From the NCBI GenBank assembly GCA_015709655.1, contig CP054181.1, forward strand, positions 2,708,207 through 2,772,206: a stretch of DNA of 64,000 nucleotides, read 5' to 3'. Each line of letters opens with the position of its first letter. The stretch's first letter is position 1. The DNA comes from Ignavibacteria bacterium (GTDB lineage: Bacteria; Bacteroidota; Ignavibacteria; Kapaibacteriales; Kapaibacteriaceae). The notes below the pieces were generated by a model that saw nothing but the letters and a program-made list of their open reading frames with translations, searched no databases and was not told the origin of the DNA. The translations under genes were made by a program, and so were the position numbers. This document shows positions 6,820 to 25,868 of the stretch, piece after piece.

Positions 6820-8898
6820 ATGGAAAAGCTCCTGGTCTGGATGTTTCTCGCATCGGTATCAACCGCACTGTGTGCCGTATCAATCAGCGGCCCGCGGGTG
6901 ATATGCGGTCAAACCGACATTGTACTGTCGGCACCCGCAGGGATGATCCGCTATTCGTGGAATACCGGTTCAACCGACAGACAGATCACTGTAACGTCGG
7001 CCGGGACCTATACCTGTACTGTAACTCTGCCAAATGGTAATATCGACACCGGCGTAGCCGTTGTTCGTCAGGCCTTTATTCCGCATCCTTCGATTGGTAA
7101 TCCGGTTGAATATCTGTGTGCAGGTGATCAGCTTCGGCTGGAAGCACCAACCACATTCGTGTCGTACCGCTGGAATACCGGGGATACCACAAGTTCCATC
7201 CGGGTGACTCAGGAGGGAAGGTTCCGTCTAACAGTTGTTGATACCAACGGATGCACGGGTACGTCAGACGAAATACTGGTGCTGGTTATTCCAAAACCTG
7301 TTGTCAGTATTCAGGGGCCAACGTCGGTGTGTAAAGATGGTACACTTGTTCACTATGTTTCCGGACAGTACAATACTTCGTATTCCTGGATGGCTGATGG
7401 TGGTGTGGTGGAAAGCGGGCAGGGTACACCGGCTGTTAAGGTACGGTGGAGCAGGTCGGGTTCTCTCACCGTCCGTGCCGTTACCACCCGCCCCGATGGT
7501 GGTGTTTGCACCAAGGATACCACGGTAAAGGTTAACGTCCTGGCATCGGTGAAGCCAACGATATCATATACGCGACGAGATATCTGTACCGGTGACTCCG
7601 TGCAACTGACGGCGGTTACCGGCGGTAACGTTGTCTGGAATACCGGTGACACAACCCAGACCATCACCGTGCGGAACGGAGGTTACTACTATGTAACGGT
7701 TACCGGAGTTGACGGATGCTCAGGGGTAAGCGATACTGTTGAAGTTATTGAGTTTCAGAAACCGCAGATCACGATTACTGGGCCCCGCATCCTGTGTCCA
7801 GGAAATTCCGCTGTCCTGACCGCATCCGATACGCGGGGAGAAGTTGTTCGCTGGGTGTGGAATACCGGGGAGCAGGGTAGCAGCATCCGGATCACTGCAC
7901 CCGGAACCTACTCGGTAACCGGAACAACGCTTGACGCATGTTCAGAAACCACGTCGATCACTCTTGGAGTGCAGCCTCCAATAGCGATGAGTGTTCCTGA
8001 TGTCAACGTTGGAGTTGTACCCACAGGACTGTATGTTCAGCCTGTAGTACAAGTCGCTAACAATGGCGTGAACGATGTTAGCGTTATTTCGGTTCAATCA
8101 TCATCGCCGGTTACCGTTAAACCGCAAACACCACGACTGGTGGGTGCCGGAACACGTCAGAACTTTACGGTTCAGTTCCTGCCTCTTGTTCCCGGTGCAT
8201 TTTCAATAACGCTCAGGTGGGTGCTGATGGACTCCGAGTGCCAGGATACGATAACTTCCAGGATCACGGGGATTGCCGTTGGTGACACCATCACAGGCGA
8301 GGTAAGTATATCCATCCCCGATACCACAGTACCGGTTGGCACTTTTCTGAACATCCCGATTCGGCTGCAGTCAACCCTGCACTTTAATGGTTCTACCACA
8401 GTCCGGTTTACGGTGCGTACTCCACGGAATGCACTGAATGTGCTTGGGTCAGGAGGGTGCAGTATCGAACGTGTAGCTCAGGAAGCTACAGACAATGTGT
8501 ACCACATTTTATTTGCAGGCTATCCATCGGGTCAGGCAGATACCACAGTGTACCTGAACGTTCAGACCATGCTACGAAGGCCGGAGCGTGCTCCGGTGAC
8601 AGCGGATAGTGTAACCCTTGAGAACGGCGTTGTTCCATTGGCAATGTATCACAACGGTTCGGTTGCGATAACCGGCTGCTGGATTGAAGGCAGACTGGTA
8701 ACGTTTCAGCAACTACATGCAACACTGGTGGTGTACCAGCTAAACGGACAGCAGGTGTACCGGCAAACTTATAACATCACACCTGAAGAAATCCGTGGCA
8801 TTGTAAACAAACTTGGAAGTTCAGGTACTCCGTTCCTTGCAGCAGTGTATTTGGCGGACGGAACGTATTACTGGAGCAGCTTTATTGTTGCACAGTAA
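6820..8898 (+). CDS. secreted protein with repeated Ig-like/PKD-like domains and probable C-terminal sorting (T9SS-like) domain
   Basis: Signal peptide MEKLLVWMFLASVSTALCAV (ATG 6820; track starts 6784); about 6 repeats of a ~80-aa module with conserved C...G..C (e.g. SIQGPTSVCKDG, TITGPRILCPGNS); aromatic-rich C-terminus ...GTYYWSSFIVAQ. Confidence 0.6.
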   Translation: MEKLLVWMFLASVSTALCAVSISGPRVICGQTDIVLSAPAGMIRYSWNTGSTDRQITVTSAGTYTCTVTLPNGNIDTGVAVVRQAFIPHPSIGNPVEYLCAGDQLRLEAPTTFVSYRWNTGDTTSSIRVTQEGRFRLTVVDTNGCTGTSDEILVLVIPKPVVSIQGPTSVCKDGTLVHYVSGQYNTSYSWMADGGVVESGQGTPAVKVRWSRSGSLTVRAVTTRPDGGVCTKDTTVKVNVLASVKPTISYTRRDICTGDSVQLTAVTGGNVVWNTGDTTQTITVRNGGYYYVTVTGVDGCSGVSDTVEVIEFQKPQITITGPRILCPGNSAVLTASDTRGEVVRWVWNTGEQGSSIRITAPGTYSVTGTTLDACSETTSITLGVQPPIAMSVPDVNVGVVPTGLYVQPVVQVANNGVNDVSVISVQSSSPVTVKPQTPRLVGAGTRQNFTVQFLPLVPGAFSITLRWVLMDSECQDTITSRITGIAVGDTITGEVSISIPDTTVPVGTFLNIPIRLQSTLHFNGSTTVRFTVRTPRNALNVLGSGGCSIERVAQEATDNVYHILFAGYPSGQADTTVYLNVQTMLRRPERAPVTADSVTLENGVVPLAMYHNGSVAITGCWIEGRLVTFQQLHATLVVYQLNGQQVYRQTYNITPEEIRGIVNKLGSSGTPFLAAVYLADGTYYWSSFIVAQ

Positions 8899-8923
8899 AC
8901 AATGGTTCTGTCCGCAGCCAATG

Positions 8924-11317
8924 CTACTCAGACTTCTTTGTAACCGACTTTCTGGATGCAGGCTTTTTTGCGGCCGACTTCCTTGCAGCAGTCTTCTTTA
9001 CCGCACGTTCGGGTTTGGCTGGTGCCGATTCGGACTGTGATTCTGCCAGTGCCAAACACTCGGCAAGAGTAAGCGCTGCAGCATCAGTACCTTTTGGAAT
9101 TCGATAGTTGTCCTTACCAATTTTCAGAAACGGTCCCCAGCGTCCTTTTAGAATCTGCACATCAGGATTTTCATTAAATATTTTGATTAGACGTTCGGCA
9201 ACTGCTTTTTTCTTTGCCTCGATGAGTTCGATTGATCGTTCGATTGACACTGTTCCGGGATCTTCGCCTGATGGAATGGAGGCAAACATGCCGTTGTGTT
9301 CGATATACGGACCAAACCGTCCGATTTTCACGACTACGGGTTGTCCTTCGTAGTCACCAACAACGCGTGGAAAGCGGAACAACGCCAGAGCCTCTTCAAG
9401 AGTAACTGTTTCCATGCTCATTGCTGGAGCAAGGCCCTTTTGTTTTTTATCCGGATCATCAGAGTCGCCGATCTGTGCAATGGGTCCGTAGCGTGCCAGC
9501 CGGATTGTGACCGGTTTCCCGGTTTTGGGATCGGTACCCAGGTGACGTTCACCGCTCTGGCGTTCTGCCGTTGCCGACGTTTTGTCGAGAGTCTCTTTAA
9601 ACGGACCATAGAACGCCGAAATCATGGACTGCCACTGCAGCTTACCGTGAGCAATCTCGTCGAACTGCTTCTCTACGCTGGCGGTAAAATTATAGTCCAT
9701 AATTCCTTCAAAGTGAAGGAGAAGAAAATCAGTCACGATTGAGCCGATGCCGGTTGGAAAGAGTTTATTTCGTTCTTGCCCGGTATTCTCTGTTTTCACA
9801 ATACGCTGGATCTCGGAAGGGGCTATGGTCTCTGTATTAAGATTCAGCACTAATTCGCGAACCTCGCGTTGCTTGCCGTCGCGATCTTCTTTTACCACGT
9901 AATTCCGTGACTGTATCGTACCAATTGTTGGTGCATACGTGGATGGACGTCCGATACCAAGTTCTTCAAGTTTTTTAACAAGTGACGCCTCGGTGTATCG
10001 GGCTGGGGGGCGGGCGAACCGTTCCTGAGCCCGCACTGCCTGTGCATCCAGTTTCTCATCAACGGCAAGGGGTGGCAGCATCTTGGCATCTTCCTGGTCA
10101 TTCTCCTCGTCGGAACTTTCCATATACAAGTGCAGAAAACCATCAAATGCCAGCATTTCGCCCGTTGCCGTGAGTGTTTCCGGTGTTGTGCTGATACCAA
10201 TGGTTGCAACGGTTTTTTCCAAACGGGCATCTGCCATTTGTGAAGCAAGGGTACGCTTCCAGATCAGGTCGTACAGTTTTTTATGTGCTTCACTGGTTCC
10301 GGCACTTTTCTTTGACACATCGGTTGGCCGAATAGCTTCGTGAGCTTCCTGTGCGCTGGCCACGGTGGTGGTGTACCGGCGGGTTTGAACGTATTCGGCG
10401 CCAAAGGATGACCCAATGTACTCTGATGCGGCGCTAATGGCAACATCGGACAAATTCACTGAATCGGTTCGCATATAGGTAATGTGTCCGGCCTCGTACA
10501 AATCCTGAGCCAGCTTCATGGTACGTGCCAATGAATAGCCCAGTTTGCGTGAAGCTTCTTGTTGGAGTGTTGACGTGGTAAACGGCGCAGAGGGTGACTT
10601 CTTACCGGGTTTTATTTCCAGATTTTGCACATGGAACAAAGCCCCCTTACACTTCTCAAGGAAGGTACGGGCTTCGGTTTCGGTATCAAACCTTCGTGGA
10701 AGTTCGGCAGTAAATGACCTGCCGTTTTTCTGAAACTCGGCTTGAATTCTAAACTGAGAGGTTACCGTGAAGGCCTGAATTTCTCGTTCCCGTTCAACAA
10801 CCAGGCGGACGGCAACGCTTTGCACTCTGCCGGCCGAAAGGTTGCGCTGTACCTTGCGCCACAGCACCGGCGAAAGTCCAAAGCCAACCAGTCTGTCCAG
10901 AATTCTGCGTGCCTGTTGAGCATCAACCAGAGCTATGTCAACGCTACGGGGTTTTTCGACTGCCGCCTGAATTGCTTTCTTGGTGATCTCGTGGAACACA
11001 ATGCGCCGTACTTTTTGTGGTGGCAGTTCCAGCGCCTCCATCAGGTGCCATGCAATAGCCTCACCCTCGCGGTCTTCGTCAGTTGCCAGCCATATTGTTT
11101 CTGCCTTGGCGGCCTGCTTTTTCAGATCTGCGACGATTTTCTTTTTATCTGCCGTGACCTCGTATGTGGGAGTAAATCCATGTTCGATATCAATCGCCTT
11201 GTCGTTACCCGGCAGATCGCGGATATGTCCCATTGATGATGTGACAACAAAGTTGTCACCTAAGAACTTTTGAATTGTTTTGGCCTTACTCGGCGATTCT
11301 ACGATAACTAGATTCAT
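8924..11317 (-). CDS. topA: DNA topoisomerase I with C-terminal lysine-rich (histone-like) tail
   Basis: N-terminal MNLVIVESPSKAKTIQKFLG Toprim start, catalytic region, multiple C-terminal Zn-ribbon-like repeats, tail AKPERAVKKTAARKSAAKKPASRKSVTKKSE. Confidence 0.9.
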   Translation of the reverse strand: MNLVIVESPSKAKTIQKFLGDNFVVTSSMGHIRDLPGNDKAIDIEHGFTPTYEVTADKKKIVADLKKQAAKAETIWLATDEDREGEAIAWHLMEALELPPQKVRRIVFHEITKKAIQAAVEKPRSVDIALVDAQQARRILDRLVGFGLSPVLWRKVQRNLSAGRVQSVAVRLVVEREREIQAFTVTSQFRIQAEFQKNGRSFTAELPRRFDTETEARTFLEKCKGALFHVQNLEIKPGKKSPSAPFTTSTLQQEASRKLGYSLARTMKLAQDLYEAGHITYMRTDSVNLSDVAISAASEYIGSSFGAEYVQTRRYTTTVASAQEAHEAIRPTDVSKKSAGTSEAHKKLYDLIWKRTLASQMADARLEKTVATIGISTTPETLTATGEMLAFDGFLHLYMESSDEENDQEDAKMLPPLAVDEKLDAQAVRAQERFARPPARYTEASLVKKLEELGIGRPSTYAPTIGTIQSRNYVVKEDRDGKQREVRELVLNLNTETIAPSEIQRIVKTENTGQERNKLFPTGIGSIVTDFLLLHFEGIMDYNFTASVEKQFDEIAHGKLQWQSMISAFYGPFKETLDKTSATAERQSGERHLGTDPKTGKPVTIRLARYGPIAQIGDSDDPDKKQKGLAPAMSMETVTLEEALALFRFPRVVGDYEGQPVVVKIGRFGPYIEHNGMFASIPSGEDPGTVSIERSIELIEAKKKAVAERLIKIFNENPDVQILKGRWGPFLKIGKDNYRIPKGTDAAALTLAECLALAESQSESAPAKPERAVKKTAARKSAAKKPASRKSVTKKSE

Positions 11318-13737: not shown

Positions 13738-15868
13738 TTATCGTTACGAACCGGTCCTGTTAAAGAACATTGTTCGTACAATACTGATTGCAGCAGCCAT
13801 GACAGGTGCAATACCTGTCTGCGCCGCCGATATGCCTGTTGTGTATCGTGATGATTTTAGTACCGCGACACAGGTTTGGCCAGTCGGGAATTGGGGCGAC
13901 AGGATTGCAGGAATTTCTGATGGAATGTATCATCTGCGGAAGCTGAGCCCGGGAGGTCTGTGGTTTATTCCTGCCCCACAGATTTTTCTCGATATCAACG
14001 CCGATTACGACATTGAACTGCGTCTGCGCTTTAACTCGGGGCAGAAGGATAAGATCATCGGTATTGGCTACATGGCTGCTGATGTGAACTACGTGAATGT
14101 TGTTGGATATACGGCTGACGGCAGCCTGGGTGCTTTTCGAATAAGCTCCGGGAGATACGAAGATGTTGTTACTCCCGTACCATCAGCTTCAGTAAAGCAG
14201 AACAATGAGTGGAATACGATTACGGTTCGGCGGAGGGGATCGGCAATTGCAATCGTCATCAATGACGATATCACGACGTATACCGAAGAGCCACGATTAT
14301 TCGGACGTGCTTTCGGTATCGTGGTTACGGGAAGCATTGCTGTTGAAGCTGATTACATTGAAGTCAGACAAACACAGCAACCAATACGCCTTGCTGCCGA
14401 TTATCCAAAGGATGTGGTTCGCGAAAACCTTGGGCCGAATGTGAATACCTACAGCGGTGATCTTTCACCGGTCATCACCGCTGATGGACGACAACTGTAC
14501 ATCGGACGCTACCCTTATGAAGGGAATATCGGCCACCCGTCAACCGAAGATATCTACGTAAGTGACCTGCAACCCGACGGATTGTGGGGAAGGATGAGAA
14601 ATATCGGCCGCCCGCTCAATAACGAAGGGAGCAATTTCCTTATCTCGATTACACCCGATGGGAATACGGCACTGGTGGGGAATACGTACAGGCCTGACGG
14701 CCGCCCGCTTTCCGGAGGTGTTAGTATTTCGTACCGAACAGAAGGGGGATGGACGGTGCCAAGGGAAGTTATTATCCGAAATTACTATAACAGAAACAGA
14801 TTCGCTGAGTATTCACTCTCACCAAGCGGGCAGCAACTGATCATGGCAATTCAGCGTGATGACTCGAAGGGTGATAAGGATATGTATGTGTCGCACCTAT
14901 TGTCGGACGGCACGTTTTCGGCTCCCCAGCATATCCAAACGCTCAGCACCTGGGGCAACGAAATGAGTCCGTTTGTTGCTGCCGACGGCGTAACGATGTA
15001 CTATGCTACTGACGGTCTTAAAGGCTACGGTTCGATGGATATCTGGGTCACACGCCGGTTGGACGATACATGGCTGAACTGGACGGAACCCGAAAACATG
15101 GGACCAAGCGTAAACAGTGATAAGTGGGATGGTTACTTCACCGTTCCTGCAAAAGGTGATTATGCTTATCTAAGTGCAGCCAACAACACCGATGGCAGCG
15201 CCGACATCTATCGTATCCGGTTAACCAAGGGAGTGCGTCCACAACCTGTTTTCCTGGTGCGCGGTCATGTACTGGATGCCGTCACCAGGAAGCCGATTGC
15301 CGCCCGTGTTGCATACGAAAGCCTTACACACCGCATGGCTGTTGGAACAGCACGTTCTGCCTTGCCGGAGGGAAGTTACAGTATTGCCCTTCCGTCGGGC
15401 GATCTGTACGGCTTCAGGGCTGAAGCCGAGGGATACTATCCGGTTAGTGACCAGCTAGATGCCCGTAAGCTTGAAGAGTATACCGAACTTGAGCGTGATC
15501 TGCTCCTGGTTCCGCTCAGAGTTAACGAGACAATAAAGTTATCCAATATCTTTTTTGATTTTGGCAAGAGCACTTTGCGAGATGAATCACTACCCGAACT
15601 TGAACGACTCCTTGCATTGCTGCGCTCGCGCCCCTCGCTTGTGATTGAACTGCAGGGACATACCGATAACGTTGGATCGGATGACGCAAACAAGGCGTTG
15701 TCGAAAGATCGCGTGGAAGCCGTCAGAACGTATCTGGTCAATAACGGAATTGATGAAAAGCGCCTGATGGCTGTTGGCTACGGTAAATCTAAGCCGGTGG
15801 CCTCCAACGATACCGAGGAGGGCCGGCAGCAAAACCGTCGCGTTGAATTTAAAATCGTGAAGATGTGA
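13712..15868 (+). CDS. outer-membrane protein: TolB-like WD40/PD40 beta-propeller repeats + C-terminal OmpA peptidoglycan-binding domain
   Basis: Signal peptide; several PD40-like repeats (SPDG/TPDG..Y motifs); C-terminal NIFFDFGKSTL...ELQGHTDNVGSDDANKALSKDRVEAVRTYL...NRRVEFKIV is canonical OmpA_C; start overlaps speA by 26 nt. Confidence 0.75.
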   Translation: MAIPTLKSNYRYEPVLLKNIVRTILIAAAMTGAIPVCAADMPVVYRDDFSTATQVWPVGNWGDRIAGISDGMYHLRKLSPGGLWFIPAPQIFLDINADYDIELRLRFNSGQKDKIIGIGYMAADVNYVNVVGYTADGSLGAFRISSGRYEDVVTPVPSASVKQNNEWNTITVRRRGSAIAIVINDDITTYTEEPRLFGRAFGIVVTGSIAVEADYIEVRQTQQPIRLAADYPKDVVRENLGPNVNTYSGDLSPVITADGRQLYIGRYPYEGNIGHPSTEDIYVSDLQPDGLWGRMRNIGRPLNNEGSNFLISITPDGNTALVGNTYRPDGRPLSGGVSISYRTEGGWTVPREVIIRNYYNRNRFAEYSLSPSGQQLIMAIQRDDSKGDKDMYVSHLLSDGTFSAPQHIQTLSTWGNEMSPFVAADGVTMYYATDGLKGYGSMDIWVTRRLDDTWLNWTEPENMGPSVNSDKWDGYFTVPAKGDYAYLSAANNTDGSADIYRIRLTKGVRPQPVFLVRGHVLDAVTRKPIAARVAYESLTHRMAVGTARSALPEGSYSIALPSGDLYGFRAEAEGYYPVSDQLDARKLEEYTELERDLLLVPLRVNETIKLSNIFFDFGKSTLRDESLPELERLLALLRSRPSLVIELQGHTDNVGSDDANKALSKDRVEAVRTYLVNNGIDEKRLMAVGYGKSKPVASNDTEEGRQQNRRVEFKIVKM

Positions 15869-18800
15869 TGGGTGTTCGTGCCGTTGGCATCGCTGTTGTT
15901 CTTCTCAGCCTTCCGGCTCTACTGCTGGCATGGGAGCGTGAGGGGCTGCTTACAAACGCTCGTCATCACACCAGTCGGTGGTATCAAGCTATCCTTGGCA
16001 ATCATGCCAACGTGGATAGCGTGATGCTGTGGATGCGACTGGACTCGTCTGCCTATACCGAGCCGCCAAGTATCGAAGTTTATAATGCCAGGGAATGGAT
16101 CCGAAAACACTACTTGTTTTCGGATGCTACAGGCAAGGTTGACAGCCGGAGGTATTTTCCGCCAAGGGCTGCAAAAACTGCTGCCGTGGTACGGACGCAG
16201 GCCAATGCCACGTGGCACTGCCTGGGACCATTTACTTGGGATAAGGATGCCAAGAAAGCCACCGGCTCTGAAGGTATCGGAGTGGTACGGAGTATTGCTG
16301 TTAACCCAAATGCTCCCACAACGTTTCTGGCGGGAACCATTAGTGCCGGTGTGTGGCGCTCTGCCGATGCAGGTTTAACCTGGACTCCGGTGACTGATGG
16401 AATCATGGCGCAGGAAGTTCATAAAGTTGCATTCTCTGCAACTGAACCATCGGTTGCCTACGCAGCACTCGATGTTGGCCTGGCCCGATCTGTTGACGGT
16501 GGAGCAACCTGGCAGCTGACGTCGCTAGACTCGCGCGCCGATTATCCGGCACTTTCACACGTTGAGTGCATAGCCGTCTCGGCAGCAAATCCACACGTCG
16601 TTCTTGTTGCCGTCAATAAACGGCTGCAGCTCAGCAGGGATGCCGGTGCAACATGGCAGGTAATTCCGGGATCGGATGGTACCTACTGGGATCTTGAAGC
16701 CAATCCTGCTAAAGGCGAAGAGTTCTACGCCATTCGGAAGGACGGCAACGTTAGCACATTTTGGATTGTTGATGAGAAGGGGCTTTCAACCGGTACTGGT
16801 TTACCCAAGCCCGGACAGCTTGATGTAACGCCACGAGCCCTAATTGCTACGTCGGCCGCCGCGCCAAATTCGGTATGGGTGCTGTTTGCAGGTAAAAAGG
16901 ACAGCGTGGGCGGTATATGGGGGCTGTATAAAAGTGATGACCAAGGGAGAACATTCGGTCGAAGGTGCTGCGGGCCGGATGAACCATCGATGCCAACACC
17001 ATTGCAACCTAACCTTATTGACTATAATCCAATGGGTCTTGGTCTTGCTCAGGTTACCTGGGATATGGCCTTTGCTGTTTCTTCCACCGATACCAGCTTT
17101 ATCGTGGCAGGAGGGATTTTTGCCTATGTAAGCAGTAACGGCGGACAAACATGGAAGGCTACTGCACCAATACATTATGATGTTCAGGATGCCGTAATTG
17201 TAGGCGACACTCTTTGGGTATCCACCGACGGTGGAATTCAACGAAGCAATGACCGCGGAACCACACTGGAAGACAGAAGTGCCGGCATCTGCGCAGTCGA
17301 GGTATGGGGCTTTGGACAGGCACCGGGAACGGGCGTCATGGCAATTGGTGCCTACCATTTACCCATCTTTGTCCGTGACGATGCGGTTTACGACAGCAGG
17401 GGGTTCTCGGCTGGATGGTATCCGTGGTCGGGTGCAGATGCAATGATGGCTGATGTTCACCCCGATAATACCCAATGGCTGTACGCAAAGCCGTGGACGA
17501 GTGTTCGTGGCTATCGCCATCGTTCTCGTTTTAAAACACCAATAGTTCGGAACCTTGGAATCGAGCTGGGTTACCTTCCGTTCAGCAATGTTGCGTTTCA
17601 TCCGGTTGAAAGCTACACCATTGTTGCGATTGATCACAATATCCCGGGTGTTGTTAGAACTACCGACAATGCAGAAACTTGGACTACATTAAAAAAGTTC
17701 AGTATATCAGGTGTTCATGTGCGTATTGCTGGTAGCCGGCCTGCAACCATGGCTGCTATTGGTGACGGGAAGCTCTGGCACTCTACAGATGTCGGTGCTA
17801 CCTGGTCCGATATTACGCCTTCAGCTCTGCAAACCCTTGAAAAGCGCATTGTGGATGTTGCCTTTGATAATGAACATCCCGACACATTGTGGATTGTGTT
17901 CGGAGGTGGTCAGCAGGATGTTAAGGTCATGCGGACTACCGATGCAGGTGCCTCTTGGCAGGACATAAGTAAGGGGCTTTACAATCTTCCCGTGTATTGC
18001 ATAAACGTTCAGTCAGCCACAGGAACTGTTTTTGTCGGGACGGCTAATGGTGTTTATTCAATGCCCCCGCAAGATGACGCTGCAGGCCAGTGGCAACCGT
18101 ATGGAAGCGGTCTCCCAACCTGTCATGTTCACTACGTGCATCCTGATGAAATTGACGGTATGCTGCGGATTGGAACCACTCGCGGCATCTGGGAAGCTGC
18201 ATTACCTAAGCCTGACACCGTTATTGCCCGCTTTGGGTATGATGCCGACACCGTTCGATGTCAGTATGTTCCGGTGCGCTTTAATGACCGCAGCCCTGTC
18301 CCATCTACTGTTGACTCATGGCGACGCTGGCATTTTGAAGGCGGAGATCCGGCCGAGAGCTCTGAGAGGTCACCACAGGTGTTCTACAACACACCCGGCA
18401 CGTATCAGGTGACTCTCGAGGTTGGTAACAGTGCAGGTACAGACACCTGCCTGGTCAGACGCGCCGTTGTTGTATTAGGTGGTGAATGTGATGTTGTTGA
18501 TTCCAAACCGGGATCGTGCGTTGACTTAACGTCGGCCGGAGATTTCATAGACCTTGGCAGCTTTAATGAATCAGTAAATGAGTTTACATTCACCGCCTGG
18601 GTGAAACCCGTCGGATTCCAAGCTATACACAGCGCCATTCTCTGTTCGGATGTCGTGGGTGACGTACGCGGCGAACTTGGTGTGCAATTTGTGACAGACA
18701 GTAATGAGCTTGGGATTTTGTGGAAGGATGCAGACTGGTCATGGAAGAGTGGTTTACGGCTTATTCCGGACCAGTGGAATCATGTTGCGTTCAGTATTAG

Positions 18801-19815
18801 CCCCACACGTGCACGGCTCATGGTTAACGGAGTAATGGCCGAACAGCCGGGAGTCTATAAGGAGCAGCACCTTGGCTCACTTCAACTCATGCTGGGAACG
18901 TATCGCTACTGGGCTGACAGGAATTTTAACGGCTATATCGATGAAGTACGGCTGTACAGAACGTCATTAAGCCGTAACGAGATCCTCTTGCACATGCATC
19001 ATCCAGCCGATCCGGATGACCCGCGGCTTCTGGCATGGTATCAGTGCAACGAAACCGGTGGCGTAAGCCTGTACGATGTTGCGCAATCCAGGCATGCCAT
19101 CCTTTCGGGTGGTGCACGGCGTGTGAACTCTGCTATTCCGTATGGCAGTGGAGTTAGCAGTCTTGTACAGGCACCGCTGTCAGATGTTCAAGCCTATCGG
19201 ATTACGGCACTCGGAGTTCAGGCTGCCGCCACACGTACTGACACAACCATACTCCTCAGCAGGATCAACAGACCAGCCCCTGCCTTTCCGGAACCATCTG
19301 TATTGGTTGACGCACGGTACTTTCTTGTTCGTACTGTATCGGCGGCTAGTGACTTCCTTGATATGGTACAGTTTGATGTTTCGGATGTTGAACCGGGTGG
19401 CAGCAAACGGGCACCAGTATTTACTGTGTGGCAGCGTCCGGCATACAGTGAGCAGCTCTGGCAGAAGGCACAAGGGTTATCCAGCTATGATTCGACACTG
19501 AAGCGGCAGACGCTGAAGTTTAATACCATGATAACGGCAAATGTTGAGCTATGTCTGAGTCTCGATAATGCTCCGGTTAGCGTTCAGGAAACCCGATCAA
19601 CCCTGCAGGTATTCCCAAATCCGGCTACTGACCATTTAAAAATAGTTAACAGTATCCCGGGTGACCGTATTACCGTTCTTGATTCGTTTGGCAGGATTCT
19701 ATGGCAGCAGACTGTTGTCGAAAGCCATACGATTATTCCGACGGCACATCTGTCATCCGGCTGCTATTATGTGTTTTCCGGATCACACGGTATTCCGTTC
19801 CGAGTTATTCATTAG
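15868..19815 (+). CDS. large secreted BNR/Asp-box repeat (sialidase/sortilin-like) + PKD + LamG protein with T9SS C-terminal domain
   Basis: Signal peptide; at least 7 SxDxGxTW Asp-box motifs; PKD-like segment (FYNTPGTYQVTLEVGNSAGTDTC); LamG/concanavalin-like region; C-terminal LQVFPNPATDHLKIVN... resembles the type-A T9SS sorting domain; ATG 15868 overlaps upstream stop (TGATG). Confidence 0.7.
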   Translation: MGVRAVGIAVVLLSLPALLLAWEREGLLTNARHHTSRWYQAILGNHANVDSVMLWMRLDSSAYTEPPSIEVYNAREWIRKHYLFSDATGKVDSRRYFPPRAAKTAAVVRTQANATWHCLGPFTWDKDAKKATGSEGIGVVRSIAVNPNAPTTFLAGTISAGVWRSADAGLTWTPVTDGIMAQEVHKVAFSATEPSVAYAALDVGLARSVDGGATWQLTSLDSRADYPALSHVECIAVSAANPHVVLVAVNKRLQLSRDAGATWQVIPGSDGTYWDLEANPAKGEEFYAIRKDGNVSTFWIVDEKGLSTGTGLPKPGQLDVTPRALIATSAAAPNSVWVLFAGKKDSVGGIWGLYKSDDQGRTFGRRCCGPDEPSMPTPLQPNLIDYNPMGLGLAQVTWDMAFAVSSTDTSFIVAGGIFAYVSSNGGQTWKATAPIHYDVQDAVIVGDTLWVSTDGGIQRSNDRGTTLEDRSAGICAVEVWGFGQAPGTGVMAIGAYHLPIFVRDDAVYDSRGFSAGWYPWSGADAMMADVHPDNTQWLYAKPWTSVRGYRHRSRFKTPIVRNLGIELGYLPFSNVAFHPVESYTIVAIDHNIPGVVRTTDNAETWTTLKKFSISGVHVRIAGSRPATMAAIGDGKLWHSTDVGATWSDITPSALQTLEKRIVDVAFDNEHPDTLWIVFGGGQQDVKVMRTTDAGASWQDISKGLYNLPVYCINVQSATGTVFVGTANGVYSMPPQDDAAGQWQPYGSGLPTCHVHYVHPDEIDGMLRIGTTRGIWEAALPKPDTVIARFGYDADTVRCQYVPVRFNDRSPVPSTVDSWRRWHFEGGDPAESSERSPQVFYNTPGTYQVTLEVGNSAGTDTCLVRRAVVVLGGECDVVDSKPGSCVDLTSAGDFIDLGSFNESVNEFTFTAWVKPVGFQAIHSAILCSDVVGDVRGELGVQFVTDSNELGILWKDADWSWKSGLRLIPDQWNHVAFSISPTRARLMVNGVMAEQPGVYKEQHLGSLQLMLGTYRYWADRNFNGYIDEVRLYRTSLSRNEILLHMHHPADPDDPRLLAWYQCNETGGVSLYDVAQSRHAILSGGARRVNSAIPYGSGVSSLVQAPLSDVQAYRITALGVQAAATRTDTTILLSRINRPAPAFPEPSVLVDARYFLVRTVSAASDFLDMVQFDVSDVEPGGSKRAPVFTVWQRPAYSEQLWQKAQGLSSYDSTLKRQTLKFNTMITANVELCLSLDNAPVSVQETRSTLQVFPNPATDHLKIVNSIPGDRITVLDSFGRILWQQTVVESHTIIPTAHLSSGCYYVFSGSHGIPFRVIH

Positions 19816-21283
19816 CGTCCGGTGCACCCATAACACCATCCGGCAGCTCGGGTTTTACCATGACAACAGTCTCCCGGTCAACCACGACTGCACCTACTGC
19901 AGCACCCTTGGGCTTTCGTACATACTTACGCTGCGTATAAATCACCGGGGTCCATCCGGCATTCCTTGCCGATGAGTAGTATGCGGCTATTGCCGCTGCC
20001 TGTTCAATAACCTTCTTTGGAGGCTTGGATACGGATGGATCCGGACTGCGCAATACACAGTGTGAACCGCTCTGGCCGCGTACGTGAAACCAATAGTCGT
20101 TTTGTTTAGCAAACTTCATCGTCAGCTGGTCATTATTCGCGCTGTTTCGTCCAACATACAACGTGTAGTCCTGTTCCAGTTGAAAAATCCGGTACGGAGG
20201 GGGAGGGGATGCATGTTTTTGTTTTACGTCCATAGGAATGCTCTCCGGGTGAAGAAGCAACTGCTCCAGTTTTTGAATTTCTGTTTCAAGTCGTGGCAGC
20301 CTTAGCAGGCGCTCGTTAGCCGCTGCCTGGGCTTTGCGAGCTTTTTCGTAGTACCGCCGGGCGTTTTCAACAAGGCTGATTTCCGGCCGAAGCTGTACCG
20401 TGATTGGTTCGTCGGACCCTGGAAGGGTCAGCTCCAGTGTGTTGACACCTGTCTGCATCGGCACCGGCTGACTTAGGAGCGCATCGCCGATTGATCGTAG
20501 TGTTTCTGGTGTTACAGATTTCAGGGCATCGTTTTTCAGTGCGTAATAACTTCGACGAAGTTTTGTGAGCCTGGCCGTGAGCAGGTGTACAGTGGCATCA
20601 GTGTCGGTATTTTTACGATCTGCCTTTCGGCGCATAGCCACGATCTGCTGAAGCGCTTCCAGCACGCTGTTAAAGCGGGAAATCACGCTCATGCCTGGAA
20701 TCGGAATTGCACTCAAAACCGGCACTGAATTATGGTCCAGGATATAAAATTCACGGGATGCCCGAAACCGGGCAATAACGTCTTCTTCTGGCATACCGGC
20801 TGATAAAAGAACAGGGGGGAGTTTAATCGGAGCCGATGTTCCCGAAAAGTGCGTGTTGCGAAGCCGGGATGTATGATGCAGTGCGTTGGTGATGACACTG
20901 TTACGGGTAACAAGTACATTGCCTTTGCCCCCGGAATAGAAACATGCCTGGATCTGCATATCACCAAAATCAAAAATCAGTATCCTGTCACCACTAAAGG
21001 CTGTAACTGATCGTAGCGTATGTCCGGTACATTCAGCAAAAATGTCAATCGTGTTTTTTTTTGCCCGGTAGGCTTCGGAACTCCTGGTAACAGTTCCATA
21101 GGTGGGGTCAACACTTAGGGTAATGTACAATTCTTGTCCGCTTTCCGTACAAAACCCGAGTCGGCACGCATTCTTCTCTTGCGTCCATGCACTGCATAGA
21201 ATCCATCCGCCAATGCAACCGTTCAGTTCTCGTGCGGCATGTTCCAGGGTGAGTGCATGCTTAATCATGGCTTTCGATACCAA
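19805..21283 (-). CDS. NFACT-family protein (FbpA/RqcH-like ribosome quality control homolog)
   Basis: N-terminal NFACT-N like region, coiled coil, and C-terminal DUF814/NFACT-R motif DYWFHVRGQSGSHCVL; real start may be the ATG 15 nt downstream (MIKHAL). Confidence 0.7.
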   Translation of the reverse strand: MVSKAMIKHALTLEHAARELNGCIGGWILCSAWTQEKNACRLGFCTESGQELYITLSVDPTYGTVTRSSEAYRAKKNTIDIFAECTGHTLRSVTAFSGDRILIFDFGDMQIQACFYSGGKGNVLVTRNSVITNALHHTSRLRNTHFSGTSAPIKLPPVLLSAGMPEEDVIARFRASREFYILDHNSVPVLSAIPIPGMSVISRFNSVLEALQQIVAMRRKADRKNTDTDATVHLLTARLTKLRRSYYALKNDALKSVTPETLRSIGDALLSQPVPMQTGVNTLELTLPGSDEPITVQLRPEISLVENARRYYEKARKAQAAANERLLRLPRLETEIQKLEQLLLHPESIPMDVKQKHASPPPPYRIFQLEQDYTLYVGRNSANNDQLTMKFAKQNDYWFHVRGQSGSHCVLRSPDPSVSKPPKKVIEQAAAIAAYYSSARNAGWTPVIYTQRKYVRKPKGAAVGAVVVDRETVVMVKPELPDGVMGAPDANE

Positions 21284-23981
21284 GCCATTCCGGCTTTTGC
21301 GACGGCAACGTTAGCGTCATTACTTTTTTCCACTCTGCCGAAGCCCCTTTCATCCACTTGGTAAAAGAAGCAACATTCTCCGGAGTGGGGTCAACGCAGC
21401 CAAGAAGCCGTGCGCAGCTTATTCGCTGATTATGCGACTTACATTTTTGCCAAATGGGAATAATGTCGGCAATTGTTCGCTTTTCGCCCCGAACGGTACC
21501 TTCGACAGCGGAATTACGAACAATTTGTTCCTTATCCATAAAGCACTTTACCAGCAGCAACGGCAGTTCACCCTTGGTGAGCGTACCAATAGCATATCCT
21601 GCTCTTGCTCTGACGTAGGGATGCTTATCTGAAAGAAGTTTAGTAACTGCCGATAGTGCGGACGGACTGCCTATCTGGCTCAGGGAAAGTGTGGCTGCAC
21701 TTCGCAAACCCCACGATGTGTTGCCGGTAACGGTGATGAGCGGCTCAACGAAGGAAATGCTCTTGCAGAGGCCTGCCAGAACGCAGCCCGCACCAATCTT
21801 CCCCCGGTCATCCGACTGCATAGCCTTGTGCAAAAAGGCAATAACGGCGGTTGAGTCGGCAGAATAGAGCTTGGGGACAACGTACTCTATGGTCAGGCGT
21901 TCGCGTGGCATTTGCGTTCCAAGGTACTGCCACAGACTGTCAAGAATACCGGTACCGAGAGCAACCAGTGAGTCTCGCGCCGGCTTTACGTTTGACTGAT
22001 ACTTTAACGGTGCGGCTGATGCCTGGATAAATAAGCTGTCGAACGACGTAGCCAGTGGCAGTGGTGGCTCTTCGGGTGACGGTGTACTTTGTTTTGTTAC
22101 CGGCTGCCGTACGGAAGAATCGGAATCGTCAATAAATGTACCATAGGTGGACTGAAGTGACGTAGAATTATTCCGCTGCGTACTTGAGTAGAAGTCAGTA
22201 CCGTTGGCATCGTAAAAGATACCAATCATGCCCATGCTTCGGCGGAAATCGGAAAAGCCTAACGTATTGGTTGAGTCGCGTGCGGCATACAGATCACTGC
22301 CATCCAGATCAGTAAAAATCGATATGGCATTTGCATTCCCGCCGCCCAGACTCAGGCTTTCTACGGCATAGGAGTCATTGCCGGAAACATCGCACAGTAA
22401 ACCAAGGGCCACATCGTGTCCGCATCCCTGACTAACGCCATGCGAGGAATACACATCGTTGCCGGCGCTATCAACCAGGATACCTGTGGCAAAGTGAACG
22501 CCGCTGCCCTGAGCATATTGATGTGCCAGATATTTATCATGTCCGGCATCATCAAGCAGGGCGCCCAGGCCAAACCAGTAGCCAACACCCTGACCAAAGA
22601 TGTCGCACACATACGTATCGTTGCCAGTGGCATCGTACAGGATACCAATTCCTCCGGAAGCATGTGGCCTGTTTCCCAGTGCCGCTCCCTGAGCAAAGGT
22701 TGTAAAGTGATCATTATATCGCAGAACATCAACAACCGGACTTGAGGCAACGTACTGATCGTTGCCTGCAAGGTCTACCAACATACCTGCTCCGCGTGTA
22801 CCGCCAAAACCCTGAGCCTGTGAATGAGCGTGGTACATGTCCGATCCTGCATTGTCGGCCAGTATGCCGATACCAAAGATGCCGGTGCCCTGGGTGTTTT
22901 GTCCGCCGATGTAAAAGTCATTACCGGCGATATCGTGCAAAATTCCAAATCCGAATAAACCGCATCCCTGGCTGAAATTGGCACTTCTGTACGTGTCATT
23001 CCCGGCCACATCGATCAGGATCCCAACGCCGAAATAGCCGCAACCCAGGGCCATGTCATTACCATTGTACGTGTCATTACCACCCAGGTCAATAATGCAC
23101 TGTACCGGATTATTCAGGGCATCTGCTTTCGAGGATGGACCGATCGTATAAATGTCATCACCACCCGGATCAAAAATCAGCGCATAGGTTCCATGGTACA
23201 CATCTGACCCGGTGGTACCGATAGCCACCAGGCCGGCGGGAGTCTGGTAAACGTGAACTGCTGTATCAGATCCGATGCTGCCCGGAGTTGCCTGAATATT
23301 GCCGATGTGGGTTATTGCCTGCAGATACAGTTCTGCACCACTGCGGTACACGTTTTCAAACCATGCCGGCTGTGCAAGGTTAAAGTAATCGCTCACCTCT
23401 TTAAACTGTTCGCGCTCAGCTCGGTACGTGTCAAACAGCGATGCTTTTTCGTTGCTGCCCGATTCAAGCCAGAGTGAATCTGACCATCGTTCAACCATCG
23501 GTGTATTGCGAACGCGCTTGCGGGCATCTGCTGCCGCTGCCTTGGCAGTAATAATCCGGTTTAGCAAAGACTGCACGATAATATGCGTACCGTTGTCGGT
23601 GATTTCAGTGGGCCGTCCATGAAGATCAGTAATGGCCACCGGCAGTTGTGATGGTGGTGCTCCAAACAAATGCAGTGGTGAGTAGCCCACCTCTGTTAAC
23701 CGTATAAGGTCAGAAAACAGGACCGGATCGGCATGAGTAAGCATTGAAACGGCTTCGCTGCTCAGCCTGCGCGCAACCGAAATGCTTCCGAGCGGATGAG
23801 TAAACAAACTGTCATGGAACCTTGTTCTGTGCGGATCGGCTTTTACCCAGTCGTACGGCAGATAAATATCGGAGTCTGACATGCCAAGCCGTTCCATGGC
23901 AGAGTGAATGTGCTGAGTAAGACTGGGTTGTGCCGCACAGACAAGGACTGGAAAGAACAGCGGGATGAGAACAAAACGCAT
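21261..23981 (-). CDS. secreted 906-aa protein with ~14 tandem glycine-rich 26-27-aa repeats (AGNDxY...QGxGxFGxGxLxD) and C-terminal HEAT-like repeats
   Basis: Signal peptide MRFVLIPLFFPVLVCAAQ; internal repeats e.g. GNDTYRSANFSQGCGLFGFGILHDIA / GNDFYIGGQNTQGTGIFGIGILADNA; C-terminal LSDKHPYVRARAGYAIG... HEAT/PBS-lyase-like repeats; no confident family assignment. Confidence 0.6.
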   Translation of the reverse strand: MRFVLIPLFFPVLVCAAQPSLTQHIHSAMERLGMSDSDIYLPYDWVKADPHRTRFHDSLFTHPLGSISVARRLSSEAVSMLTHADPVLFSDLIRLTEVGYSPLHLFGAPPSQLPVAITDLHGRPTEITDNGTHIIVQSLLNRIITAKAAAADARKRVRNTPMVERWSDSLWLESGSNEKASLFDTYRAEREQFKEVSDYFNLAQPAWFENVYRSGAELYLQAITHIGNIQATPGSIGSDTAVHVYQTPAGLVAIGTTGSDVYHGTYALIFDPGGDDIYTIGPSSKADALNNPVQCIIDLGGNDTYNGNDMALGCGYFGVGILIDVAGNDTYRSANFSQGCGLFGFGILHDIAGNDFYIGGQNTQGTGIFGIGILADNAGSDMYHAHSQAQGFGGTRGAGMLVDLAGNDQYVASSPVVDVLRYNDHFTTFAQGAALGNRPHASGGIGILYDATGNDTYVCDIFGQGVGYWFGLGALLDDAGHDKYLAHQYAQGSGVHFATGILVDSAGNDVYSSHGVSQGCGHDVALGLLCDVSGNDSYAVESLSLGGGNANAISIFTDLDGSDLYAARDSTNTLGFSDFRRSMGMIGIFYDANGTDFYSSTQRNNSTSLQSTYGTFIDDSDSSVRQPVTKQSTPSPEEPPLPLATSFDSLFIQASAAPLKYQSNVKPARDSLVALGTGILDSLWQYLGTQMPRERLTIEYVVPKLYSADSTAVIAFLHKAMQSDDRGKIGAGCVLAGLCKSISFVEPLITVTGNTSWGLRSAATLSLSQIGSPSALSAVTKLLSDKHPYVRARAGYAIGTLTKGELPLLLVKCFMDKEQIVRNSAVEGTVRGEKRTIADIIPIWQKCKSHNQRISCARLLGCVDPTPENVASFTKWMKGASAEWKKVMTLTLPSQKPEWLGIESHD

Positions 23982-25037: not shown

Positions 25038-25868
25038 TTACCGGGGAGGCCATGAAATGTTCAAATCGGTTCTGTAGGGTTTGGGGTGAGCCGGAATCAA
25101 AAGCTCTACATGGTAATCGCCGTCACTAACCCGTACCCCCTGAAGGTTTCTGCCATTCCATGGAATAACATACCGCTGCATCTGGTTGGGTGTTTGCGGT
25201 TCAACAGTGCTAACAAACTGTAAGAAGTTGCGTTCGTAATCTGACCTGTACACAACAGTCCCGGCTTCGTCGGTAATGATGATTCGGAAGACTTCGGACG
25301 ACGGGAGGTATTCGCCTGGCGGAACAAAAATGCGCTTTGCAACAGCTCCAATCTCCATCGTTGTATCGTTAACGGCATGCGAAAATGCAGTGAGTTCAAG
25401 AGGTTCGATCACCTCGTAAGTAAGATGCGTTCTGAATACAAGATGTTCCTCCGGCGTAACGACCGAAACATCAGCCCAGCAGCTCTTGCTGGCGACGGCA
25501 GGCTTGGTATCCCATGTTGCATTCCCAGTCAGGTGAATTGTTTCTCCTACGCCCGGTGCACCTGCCGTACTAAGCGAGAACGTGATGATATCGTTCATAC
25601 TATTCTCGTCTGCGCCTACTGCAGCCTCTACATACTTTACATATTTACCCGACGTTCGCAGGGTTGGTGTTCCAATAAAGCTGATATTAACTGTTCCGTC
25701 TGTAAGCTTTACTGCTCGTAAATCGTACACTGGTTCGTTAACCCGAAGGGCTTTGCCAGAGCGCACGAAGTCACTATGAGCTACGCGTACACAGCCGGTG
25801 GTAGAAATGGTGACGATCGTAATGATGACGAGTAAGGAGCACCACCGATGTAAGCGTGATCGTATCAT
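25038..25868 (-). CDS. hypothetical secreted/lipoprotein (276 aa)
   Basis: N-terminal signal peptide with possible lipobox (ISTTGC); no recognisable catalytic motifs. Confidence 0.45.
   Translation of the reverse strand: MIRSRLHRWCSLLVIITIVTISTTGCVRVAHSDFVRSGKALRVNEPVYDLRAVKLTDGTVNISFIGTPTLRTSGKYVKYVEAAVGADENSMNDIITFSLSTAGAPGVGETIHLTGNATWDTKPAVASKSCWADVSVVTPEEHLVFRTHLTYEVIEPLELTAFSHAVNDTTMEIGAVAKRIFVPPGEYLPSSEVFRIIITDEAGTVVYRSDYERNFLQFVSTVEPQTPNQMQRYVIPWNGRNLQGVRVSDGDYHVELLIPAHPKPYRTDLNISWPPR

Follow-up and report, generated by a model that had tools for sequence, protein, structure and literature searches.

The 906-aa protein encoded on the minus strand at 21261..23981 of the window (the whole analysed stretch of 64,000 nucleotides) joins in one chain a β-solenoid protein and a HEAT-repeat protein that are encoded elsewhere by the two separate genes of a conserved cassette. 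The ORF starts with ATG, and its length and borders agree with those in the initial annotation. Behind a Sec-type signal peptide, the protein has a helical N-domain, then about 14 solenoid coils and finally a C-terminal HEAT module, arranged as follows:

23931..23981, minus strand: Sec-type (SPase I) signal peptide, aa 1-17 (MRFVLIPLFFPVLVCAA / Q18), read from the sequence
23262..23930, minus strand: N-terminal all-helical domain, aa 18-240, ahead of the solenoid (AlphaFold2 helices, conserved motif)
22122..23261, minus strand: β-solenoid, aa 241-620, about 14 coils of 26-27 aa (motifs, single-coil HMM, AlphaFold2)
22650..22751, minus strand: conserved insertion in coil 6, aa 411-444 (alignment conservation)
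22392..22634, minus strand: coils 7-9, aa 450-530, candidate working site (family-wide invariant non-repeat residues)
22044..22121, minus strand: low-complexity linker rich in Pro, Ser and Thr, aa 621-646, where the two modules are joined (pLDDT, homologue boundaries)
21264..22043, minus strand: basic HEAT-repeat module, aa 647-906, an orthologue of the stand-alone HEAT proteins whose genes lie downstream of unfused solenoid genes (Pfam HEAT_2, PDB matches, BLASTP colinearity)

Fused and separate forms of the cassette

The C-terminal module clearly belongs to the bacterial PBS-lyase-type HEAT proteins (HEAT_2; alphaRep templates, YibA, CpcE/F, NblB), in agreement with the HEAT-like C-terminus of the initial annotation. 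Pfam HEAT_2 (PF13646) matched aa 746-827 (E=2.6e-16; score 60.1 bits, gathering threshold 27.7), alphaRep/HEAT matches among the PDB sequences reached down to E=6e-23, and the AlphaFold2 model has continuous helices over aa 647-905, for which Foldseek returned HEAT and alphaRep structures. Unlike other proteins of this type, however, the module is exported and is fused to, or encoded beside, a solenoid, and modules of the window type carry a family-specific N-terminal motif, DSLFxxAS...KY...PARDS. The module is basic (pI 9.3), as are those of the fused members (median pI 9.9) and three of four stand-alone partners (pI >9.3); one stand-alone partner is acidic (pI 5.5).

In Zixibacteria, WOR-3 and their relatives, the N-domain and the solenoid form a protein of 620-660 aa without HEAT. 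At seven of eight such loci, the solenoid gene is followed downstream by a distinct gene for a HEAT protein that has a signal peptide of its own, often with an overlap of 4 nt between the two; at the remaining locus the HEAT gene is absent. The stand-alone HEAT proteins are colinear with aa ~647-830 of the window protein (BLASTP E=2e-16, 1e-9 and 7e-17), and the alignments include the non-generic motif DSLFxxASxxxxKYxxxxxPARDS. The unfused solenoid proteins end about at the linker, of which aa 621-637 were modelled with a pLDDT below 50, and the HEAT alignment begins just past it. Because the downstream gene is colinear with the C-terminus of the window protein, the latter is a fusion of the two genes, and the phrase 'fused to HEAT' in the initial annotation is literally true. 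Fused and unfused forms are intermixed at 44-48% identity.

A single-coil HMM of 35 positions was made from 106 coils, as the initial annotation had proposed. This profile matched 11 stretches of the window ORF (E=3.6e-91) and, among 4,102 ORFs from the window and 80 related loci, only the orthologous ORFs (81 of 81). In a search of 1.84 billion proteins, the window protein was recovered with E=1.2e-82, and at least 3,578 clusters (defined at 50% identity) matched at E<=1e-3, which indicates a large unmodelled family; among the best 150 of these clusters, 72 have the unfused and 50 the fused length. At least 550 species-level genome stretches were confirmed to carry the family. Its range is wider than the Bacteroidota/Chlorobi in which a search had been suggested, as Zixibacteria, WOR-3 and MAGs labelled Planctomycetota have members too; of the relatives that bear a name, Chlorobi bacterium OLB6 is the nearest. 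The searches made found no experimental study of any member.

The solenoid and its nearest known folds

The G-x-D-x-Y motifs of the solenoid lie at aa 258, 274, 301, 327, 353, 379, 406, 453, 480, 507, 534, 561 and 594. They are generally 26-27 aa apart; two units are longer, with 47 and 33 aa. The coil consensus, D-x-x-G-N-D-x-Y-x6-Q-G-x-G-x3-G-x-G-I-L-x-D, and the number of coils are those recognised in the initial annotation, which placed the repeats at nt ~22180-23200; the repeat region found here is nt 22122-23261. Within the consensus, D-x-x-G-x-D-x-Y is invariant or nearly so in 12 coils among 42 orthologues and is almost wholly kept across 26 members from several phyla. No tandem repeat was found at the DNA level in this region, indicating that the coils are old and diverged. 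The solenoid is strongly acidic (pI 4.17) with 38 Asp against one Glu and 16.6% Gly, and the solenoid proteins of five unfused members have a pI of 4.05-4.66 with Asp 4-7 times as frequent as Glu.

Outside the HEAT module, no Pfam or NCBIfam model matched anywhere in the window protein. Searches of the PDB sequences with the whole protein, the domain profile and the single-coil profile (the last up to E<=10) gave no match for the solenoid, and the N-domain likewise had no match in Pfam, NCBIfam or the PDB sequences. The view that the repeat corresponds to no known motif thus stands, and no clear match to an established repeat family appeared in these collections. The AlphaFold2 model (pLDDT 83, pTM 0.84) predicts helices over aa 20-231 of the N-domain (pLDDT mostly 82-96) and regular strands over aa 243-618, three per coil, in line with the β-solenoid former that had been suspected. 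The conserved motif of the N-domain is LDxAL...M...D......D.FRL......PL; P63 is invariant, and L29, D49 and R52 nearly so, in both fused and unfused members.

Foldseek with this model, another step that had been suggested, gave as its best match the structure 3P4G, and this match is weak (E=0.05, probability 0.69, TM 0.3-0.4); an RTX lipase followed at E about 2-4, and adenylate cyclase toxin was also matched weakly. The sole near folds in the PDB are thus Ca2+-bound solenoids (3P4G and the RTX lipase). 3P4G is the Ca2+-dependent antifreeze β-helix, MpAFP region IV, of the Marinomonas primoryensis ice adhesin, and binds a single row of Ca2+ ions. Both proteins are parallel β-solenoids with one x-G-x-G-N-D-type turn per coil, although the coil of 3P4G has 19 aa, whereas that of the window protein has 26-27 aa and three strands, and no sequence relationship is detectable. 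MpAFP moreover belongs to a giant T1SS adhesin, whereas in the window protein a Sec signal and a helical N-domain are combined with a HEAT partner and with invariant His, Asp, Tyr and Trp residues; ice binding finds no support in the comparison.

With the RTX β-roll (PF00353; serralysin, Pseudomonas sp. MIS38 lipase), the solenoid shares the turn G-[ND]-D-x-[hydrophobic or aromatic], richness in Gly, an acidity due mainly to Asp and, presumably and by analogy, Ca2+-dependent folding outside the cytoplasm. In the RTX roll, however, nonamers stand back to back, whereas the window protein has one RTX-like nonamer per coil, with D-x in place of the first two Gly of GGxGxD. If the protein were an ordinary member of the RTX family that the profiles had missed, such as a Ca2+-binding toxin, adhesin or enzyme secreted by the type I route, the turn, the acidity and the weak matches to the lipase and to adenylate cyclase toxin would be explained, but the features tested already contradict such membership and make it extremely improbable: the period is 26-27 aa rather than 9 or 18, HemolysinCabind (PF00353) gave no match at E<=1, the single-coil profile matched no PDB sequence although the PDB holds RTX proteins such as the MIS38 lipase, the signal is an N-terminal Sec signal rather than a C-terminal T1SS signal, the chain ends in a HEAT domain, and the gene lies beside ribD and NFACT, with no T1SS genes adjoining. 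The exclusion of RTX in the initial annotation is therefore right as to membership, although each coil does have one RTX-like turn, [AGS]-G-[ND]-D-x-Y. Its exclusion of PbH1 and bactofilin can be kept as it was: Pfam gave no Beta_helix, PbH1 or NosD match and no PF04519 match, and bactofilins are cytoplasmic with coils of about 18 aa, unlike the longer coils behind a signal peptide found here.

Conserved residues, export and gene neighbourhoods

In an alignment of 26 sequences from fused, unfused and M14-fused members, Y468, W469, Y489, Q491, H496, Q518, H522 and D523 in coils 7-9 are invariant outside the repeat rule. Y468/W469, H496 and H522/D523 sit at coil positions 19-20 of three consecutive coils. 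The insertion in coil 6 follows the pattern SPxVDVLRYxxHxxTFxQGAALGxRPxASGG, in which S414, P415, D418, L420, R421, Y422, H425, F429, Q431, G432, A433, L435, G436, R438, P439, G443 and G444 are invariant in 42 orthologues; in the wider family, Q431, G432, G436, G443 and G444 remain invariant, and D418 and R438 nearly so. The AlphaFold2 model has its lowest confidence in the conserved loop (below 50 over aa 417-435) and in part of coil 9; for this reason, we infer the stacking of the invariant residues from the sequence register, and the contact between the modules remains similarly provisional. The invariant His, Asp, Tyr and Trp residues point to a candidate working site rather than to plain structure.

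These residues bear on whether the protein is purely a scaffold, that is, a stiff rod in the periplasm or on the surface that serves as a spacer, adhesin or S-layer-like element and has no catalytic or specific ligand site, which corresponds to the surface structural protein of the initial annotation. A regular solenoid with helical repeats is typical of scaffolds, no enzyme family was matched, and the distant Foldseek neighbours (all E>5) include curli CsgA, FapC, the RsaA S-layer protein and autotransporter passengers. However, the non-repeat His, Asp, Tyr and Trp residues and the 34-aa loop are kept across phyla at an overall identity of about 30-40%, which argues against a plain rod because a rod would not need them. 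Moreover, the protein is single-copy in the window, and most members lack signals for display on the surface, such as a T9SS C-terminal domain or a lipobox. We therefore regard a scaffold as an unlikely explanation, though the foremost of the alternatives.

The signal peptide, MRFVLIPLFFPVLVCAA followed by Q, was identified by inspection, and most of 42 aligned homologues have the same pattern of a hydrophobic core, a small-residue site and Q at +1. Both the signal peptide and the missing T9SS C-terminal domain had been noted before; neither Por_Secre_tail (PF18962) nor TIGR04183 matched at E<=1. The convergent neighbour at 15865-19815, unlike the window protein, carries a T9SS C-terminal sorting domain. 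The lipobox [LVI][ASTVI][GAS]C is absent from the window protein (V-L-V-C-A-A/Q), and most homologues have no Cys there; a lipobox-like AGC occurs in the M14-fused form only. The protein is Sec-exported and most likely periplasmic, and the surface structural protein of the initial annotation is not supported by these signals or by the invariant residues.

Gene neighbourhoods vary by lineage (ribD/NFACT as in the window, TatC/NrdR, PorU/PorV, proteases) and give no consistent functional clue, although two further alternatives draw on them. By analogy with periplasmic AlgG/AlgE-type β-helices beside helical-repeat partners, module A (aa 18-620) might be a polysaccharide-active β-helix enzyme (lyase, epimerase or hydrolase) acting on an exopolysaccharide or cell-surface glycopolymer. 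Like the pectin-lyase-like enzymes (PbH1/Beta_helix; AlgG/AlgE epimerases), the solenoid is presumably extracytoplasmic and has three strands per coil, a coil length within 22-27 aa and conserved polar or aromatic residues in its turns (His-Asp, Tyr, Trp, Gln and Arg), from which a groove could be built; Ca2+ is also a cofactor of PL1, PL3, PL6 and PL9 lyases. A GT-C-like membrane glycosyltransferase homologue lies directly upstream at 8 of 80 loci, with PorU/PorV upstream in the same group, and a periplasmic TPR protein at 27 of 80. These neighbours, however, are lineage-specific, the cross-phylum TPR similarity is generic, and no carbohydrate-gene context was seen at the Zixibacteria or WOR-3 loci. 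Pfam gave no pectate-lyase match, PF13229/PbH1/NosD profiles were without match at E<=1, Foldseek matches to this superfamily began at E>=7.5 (a pectate lyase at E=7.5), and the strict Asp-Gly-Asp-Tyr ladder and Gly-rich turns of the window solenoid are foreign to it. We consider such an enzyme quite improbable.

Still less probable is a substrate-binding or regulatory role of module A in extracytoplasmic proteolysis or peptide processing. It would fit three clusters (about 52% identity; two from MAGs labelled Planctomycetota or nearby) in which a lipoprotein M14 zinc carboxypeptidase is fused N-terminal to module A; the fusion gene follows a Trypsin_2 protease gene (4-nt overlap at locus L088, short gap at L087) and lies near an M16 peptidase pair. 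The M14 fusions nevertheless represent one lineage, effectively one evolutionary event, and no protease context was found in the window or at the Kapabacteria or Zixibacteria loci.

Proposed mechanism and implications

The explanation that best accounts for the whole, and towards which we lean with modest confidence, is an exported fused cassette of a Ca2+-rigidified solenoid with a working site and a HEAT partner. Module A would comprise the helical N-domain and a three-sided parallel β-solenoid of about 14 coils. In each coil, an invariant Asp would end one strand and be followed by the RTX-like turn x-x-G-[N/D]-D-x-Y, which would align two Asp from every coil along one edge of the solenoid. 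Once the protein is exported, about one Ca2+ per coil would neutralise this Asp ladder and stiffen the solenoid to a rod some 6-7 nm long (14 coils, rise about 4.8 Å), as in RTX β-rolls and the MpAFP antifreeze helix by analogy. The stacked invariant Asp, the 38:1 ratio of Asp to Glu and the bound Ca2+ of the nearest PDB folds suggest that the solenoid probably binds Ca2+, whereas the weak 3P4G match and the failure of the Pfam RTX model to match even at E<=1 count against it. On another edge, Y468/W469, H496, H522/D523, Y489 and the 34-aa loop would form the working site, which would be a groove for binding or else a His-His-Asp centre, metal-dependent or catalytic, that acts on an envelope polymer or peptide. 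Module B (aa 647-906), the basic HEAT solenoid, would be an obligate partner that docks on module A or recruits a further component.

A bolder version, which we consider unlikely, is that module A represents an unrecognised class of Ca2+-dependent periplasmic enzyme or receptor with a His496/His522/Asp523/Tyr/Trp centre on the solenoid edge, working only with its dedicated HEAT partner. It would belong to an ancient, vertically inherited envelope system of candidate phyla in the FCB group (Kapabacteria/Ignavibacteria, Zixibacteria, WOR-3) of which no component has been studied.

What appears to be new here is the separate HEAT gene beside the unfused solenoid gene in Zixibacteria, WOR-3 and their relatives. 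At least 3,578 clusters carry a repeat domain that has neither a Pfam or NCBIfam model nor a solved structure, in lineages known almost wholly from metagenomes, including abundant members of wastewater and anammox communities. The domain definition, the list of invariant residues and the recognition of HEAT as a separable, co-inherited partner can be used by family curators and structural biologists, and turn annotations such as 'HEAT repeat domain-containing protein' and 'hypothetical protein' into a testable two-module system. If the Ca2+ ladder is true, the principle of RTX and MpAFP would extend to a three-sided solenoid that has longer coils and is exported by Sec.

Repeat unit and architecture of the solenoid-HEAT protein

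The open reading frame lies where the initial annotation had placed it (positions 21261 to 23981, reverse strand, ATG start, 906 amino acid residues), and the regular repeat proposed for its product was confirmed by the motif spacing and by an HMM built from a single coil, that is, one repeat unit of 26 to 27 residues. The G-x-D-x-Y motif occurs 13 times between residues 258 and 594 at intervals of 26 to 27 residues, except for one 47-residue and one 33-residue unit. The consensus drawn from 106 canonical coils of 12 homologues is D-x-x-G-N-D-x-Y-x6-Q-G-x-G-x3-G-x-G-I-L-x-D, in which D1, G4, D6 and Y8 are 100% conserved. The single-coil HMM matched 11 stretches of the protein (E = 3.6e-91) and, among the 4,102 ORFs of the window and 80 related loci, matched only the 81 orthologous ORFs; neither the window nor the 80 flanks contained a paralogue. 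No tandem repeat was found in the gene at the DNA level, so that a recent DNA duplication is not supported and the coils are ancient and diverged. Consensus matches to internal promoters and terminators were at or below chance expectation.

The N-terminus, MRFVLIPLFFPVLVCAA/Q, was judged by eye to be of the Sec/SPase I type, and most of the aligned homologues are built alike (a hydrophobic core and a small-residue site, followed by Q), in agreement with the signal peptide noted initially. The absence of a T9SS C-terminal domain was also upheld, as no such model in Pfam or NCBIfam matched even at E <= 1. By default topology the protein would be periplasmic, and nothing supports the surface structural role that had been suggested for it.

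The AlphaFold2 model, built with 42 full-length homologues, was confident (mean pLDDT 83, pTM 0.84) and predicted the following regions.

Residues 20 to 231: helices
Residues 243 to 618: regular solenoid of about 14 coils, with three short strands per coil
Residues 621 to 637: disordered linker, the Pro/Ser/Thr-rich stretch extending to about residue 646
Residues 647 to 905: an unbroken run of helices that matches HEAT/alphaRep folds

The only Pfam match in the whole protein was HEAT_2/HEAT (residues ~746 to 827; 60.1 bits, cut-off 27.7), as expected from the HEAT-like C-terminus described earlier.

Relation to Ca2+-bound solenoids and a candidate working site

NCBIfam gave nothing meaningful for the protein, the RTX, Beta_helix and bactofilin models did not match even at E <= 1, and nothing for the solenoid was returned from the PDB sequences, whether the query was the whole protein, a solenoid profile of 12 sequences or a single-coil profile of 53 units. 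The lone PDB sequence hit, a 2-oxoglutarate dioxygenase (E = 1.2), was set aside as chance. The repeat is real, highly significant and without a model in curated libraries, as the proposal of a new repeat family had anticipated. No solved structure is close to the solenoid, and the sole near ones are Ca2+-bound solenoids, which agrees with the RTX-like turn in the coil sequence: the [AGS]-G-[ND]-D-x-Y segment, which occurs once in each coil, corresponds to the latter half of the nonamer GGxGxDxUx of RTX proteins. The two invariant Asp residues of each coil would be stacked at ~4.8 A over 12 coils and would repel each other unless neutralised by cations, from which we infer about one bound Ca2+ per coil. 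The initial interpretation therefore stands as to the novelty of the family and is refined as to its nature: the repeat is an RTX-like, three-sided and probably Ca2+-binding solenoid, and we classify it among the Ca2+-type beta-solenoid repeat proteins.

In 42 orthologues with 38 to 45% identity to the window protein, D-x-x-G-x-D-x-Y, whose repetition forms a ladder of turns, was invariant or almost invariant in 12 coils. Invariant elements outside the repeat were a 34-residue insertion (residues 411 to 444) and the motifs DIYGQGxGYWF, YQYAQGxGVHF, SHGVSQGCGHD, SLSLGxGNANA and GxSDxRR. A family alignment of 26 members, which included fused, unfused (see below) and M14-fused forms with 28 to 45% identity to the window protein, narrowed the residues invariant beyond the ladder to Q390, Q431, G432, G436, G443, G444, Q464, G465, Y468, W469, Y489, Q491, G492, H496, Q518, G519, H522 and D523; D418, R438, N551 and R581 were nearly invariant. 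In the coil register, Y468/W469, H496 and H522/D523 occupy positions 19 and 20 of three consecutive coils, and since these positions form the turn after the third strand, the residues should be adjacent along one edge of the solenoid. The resulting His-His-Asp cluster, flanked by Tyr and Trp and lying beside a conserved loop, looks more like a site for metal binding, ligand binding or catalysis than like packing. Because of this candidate cluster, we prefer a working module to a plain rod as the reading of the solenoid.

The HEAT module as a separate gene

When 1.84 billion representatives were searched with the single-coil profile, thresholds of E <= 1e-3, 1e-10 and 1e-30 gave 3,578, 2,732 and 1,286 clusters, respectively. 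Among the best 150 of the 3,578 clusters, 72 have lengths of 590 to 735 residues and 50 have lengths of 870 to 1060 residues. The short members, unfused forms consisting of the signal peptide, N-domain and solenoid and stopping just past the last coil, contain no Pfam domain at all and come, where named, from Zixibacteria, WOR-3 and unclassified MAGs.

Of eight unfused loci inspected, seven encode a HEAT protein of 279 to 325 residues in the next gene downstream, which frequently shares a 4-nt overlap with the solenoid gene; a small toxin-antitoxin insertion separates the two genes at one locus, and the eighth locus has no HEAT gene. One such unfused pair lies at positions 8001 to 9953 and 9996 to 10832 of L081 (CP070839.1). 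Two of the seven partners lacked a precomputed Pfam hit; one of these shares 71% identity with a recognised HEAT partner, and the other, in the Zixibacteria-type locus L091, was counted by length and position only. All four stand-alone HEAT proteins that were translated have their own signal peptide. The three compared with the window protein were colinear with it from about residue 647 on (E = 2e-16, 1e-9 and 7e-17), and the alignments took in a non-generic motif, DSLFxxASxxxxKYxxxxxPARDSxVxLG. The window protein is therefore the fused form of a widespread two-gene cassette, with the disordered linker (residues 621 to 646) as the joint, and the reported fusion to HEAT repeats is a true gene fusion. 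Among the relatives of one Zixibacteria-like query, fused (982 to 991 residues) and unfused (654 residues) forms were interleaved at 44 to 48% identity, suggesting that fusion or fission occurred more than once.

The two modules also differ in charge. The solenoid is extremely acidic (pI 4.17, net charge -29), nearly all of its acidity coming from aspartate (38 D versus 1 E), and the HEAT module is basic (pI 9.3). The solenoids of five unfused members have pI values of 4.05 to 4.66, whereas fused HEAT modules have a median pI of 9.9 and three of four stand-alone HEAT partners lie above 9.3. The comparative evidence that the two modules act together is strong, and a direct contact between them would be consistent with the high pTM and the opposite charges.

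Gene neighbourhoods and distribution of the family

In the window, a reverse-strand run of genes for a PNP-family phosphorylase, an FlgD_ig-like protein, RibD, the solenoid-HEAT protein and NFACT converges with a T9SS cargo gene.

15865 to 19815, forward strand: predicted T9SS cargo, 1,316 residues, with BNR/Sortilin-Vps10 beta-propeller repeats, PKD, Laminin_G_3 and a Por_Secre_tail C-terminal domain
19805 to 21283, reverse strand: NFACT (RqcH/FbpA-like), 492 residues, with NFACT_N and NFACT-R_1 domains; TTG start
25038 to 25868, reverse strand: lipobox-like (…ISTTGC) protein, 276 residues, with a weak FlgD_ig-like C-terminal domain and no other annotation

The ribD gene lies 15 nt from the solenoid-HEAT gene, and the TTG start of NFACT overlaps the final 23 nt of the solenoid-HEAT ORF, suggesting co-transcription or translational coupling of the latter pair. 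Among the 80 related loci, ribD is upstream in 39, NFACT downstream in 38, the 276-residue protein gene upstream of ribD in 32 and the cargo gene at the same position in 17; a signal-peptide-bearing TPR gene is inserted directly upstream in 27. Being cytoplasmic housekeeping genes, ribD and NFACT were taken as lineage gene order rather than as a functional clue. In L007 (positions 4690 to 8661; Ignavibacteria bacterium NC_groundwater_618, proteins P0020 and P0021), ribD runs on into the solenoid-HEAT gene in a single frame, deposited as a 1,265-residue 'bifunctional RibD'; this is probably a stop-codon loss or a gene-calling artefact, because a cytoplasmic enzyme before an internal signal peptide is topologically senseless.

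A clade of 8 to 12 loci labelled Kapabacteria/Bacteroidota has a different run.

L024, 159 to 14552 (also L017, L039, L052 and others): PorU (T9SS sortase), PorV, GT-C-like LA_3751/3752-family membrane protein (a glycosyltransferase homologue), the solenoid-HEAT protein, a small protein with a T9SS tail and an unannotated one of >1,500 residues

The last protein had no Pfam or NCBIfam hit, and this context was set aside as a functional clue because it is limited to these related loci. In all five Zixibacteria-type loci (L081, L084, L089, L090 and L091), tatC precedes the solenoid gene, with a 4-nt overlap in four and a 29-nt gap in L091, where the linkage is kept despite an MmeI-type restriction-modification gene inserted upstream; NrdR and a cytidine/RibD-type deaminase lie ahead of TatC in four of the five. 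The TatC adjacency was likewise discounted: it is confined to Zixibacteria, and the solenoid proteins carry no twin-arginine motif. Three clusters in total carry an M14 carboxypeptidase-module A fusion (module A, residues 18 to 620 of the window protein, comprises the N-domain and solenoid). M14 is fused to the module A N-terminus in two loci, one of which belongs to a Planctomycetota-labelled MAG; the fusion gene is preceded by one for a Trypsin_2 protease, with an M16 pair nearby. Directly downstream of the fusion gene, L087 (9258 to 13580) encodes a large RHS-repeat protein that contains DUF6531; the L087 contig is syntenic with one from the Planctomycetota-labelled MAG.

Across lineages the HEAT partner is the only conserved neighbour, and no third conserved partner was found among the neighbours compared. 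Similarity between the upstream TPR proteins of Kapabacteria and those of Zixibacteria is of the generic TPR kind only, and neither is related to the GT-C-like protein. L024 and L087 encode large downstream proteins that are unrelated to each other (that of L087 being the RHS protein), and homology between hyp276 and the small FlgD_ig protein was not demonstrable. Neighbours other than the HEAT partner give weak and inconsistent hints of a role in the envelope, in secretion, in glycopolymer metabolism or in proteolysis.

An identical protein is annotated as 'HEAT repeat domain-containing protein [Chlorobi bacterium]', and a near-identical member of the same 90% cluster is from Chlorobi bacterium OLB6. 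Full-length homologues with 37 to 50% identity were confirmed in at least 550 stretches of species-representative genomes; of the 80 best stretches, the majority carry the label Kapaibacterium, Kapaibacteriota, Ignavibacteria, Chlorobiota or Bacteroidota. Eight gene-bearing contigs (L003, L012, L026, L038, L053, L064, L076 and L079) are deposited under unrelated names, including Hyphomicrobiales, Patescibacteria, Chitinophaga pinensis, Chloroflexota, Planctomycetales, Didemnitutus and Bifidobacteriales, and several of them share the same Kapabacteria-type synteny. Such names suggest that MAGs were mis-binned or mislabelled, and caution is needed with any taxon label in the family, 'Planctomycetota' for the M14 fusions among them. 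The literature on HEAT or T9SS proteins of Kapabacteria/Ignavibacteria and on Chlorobi bacterium OLB6 yielded nothing on the solenoid-HEAT protein. The solenoid family is useful for family curation and for the structural genomics of candidate phyla.
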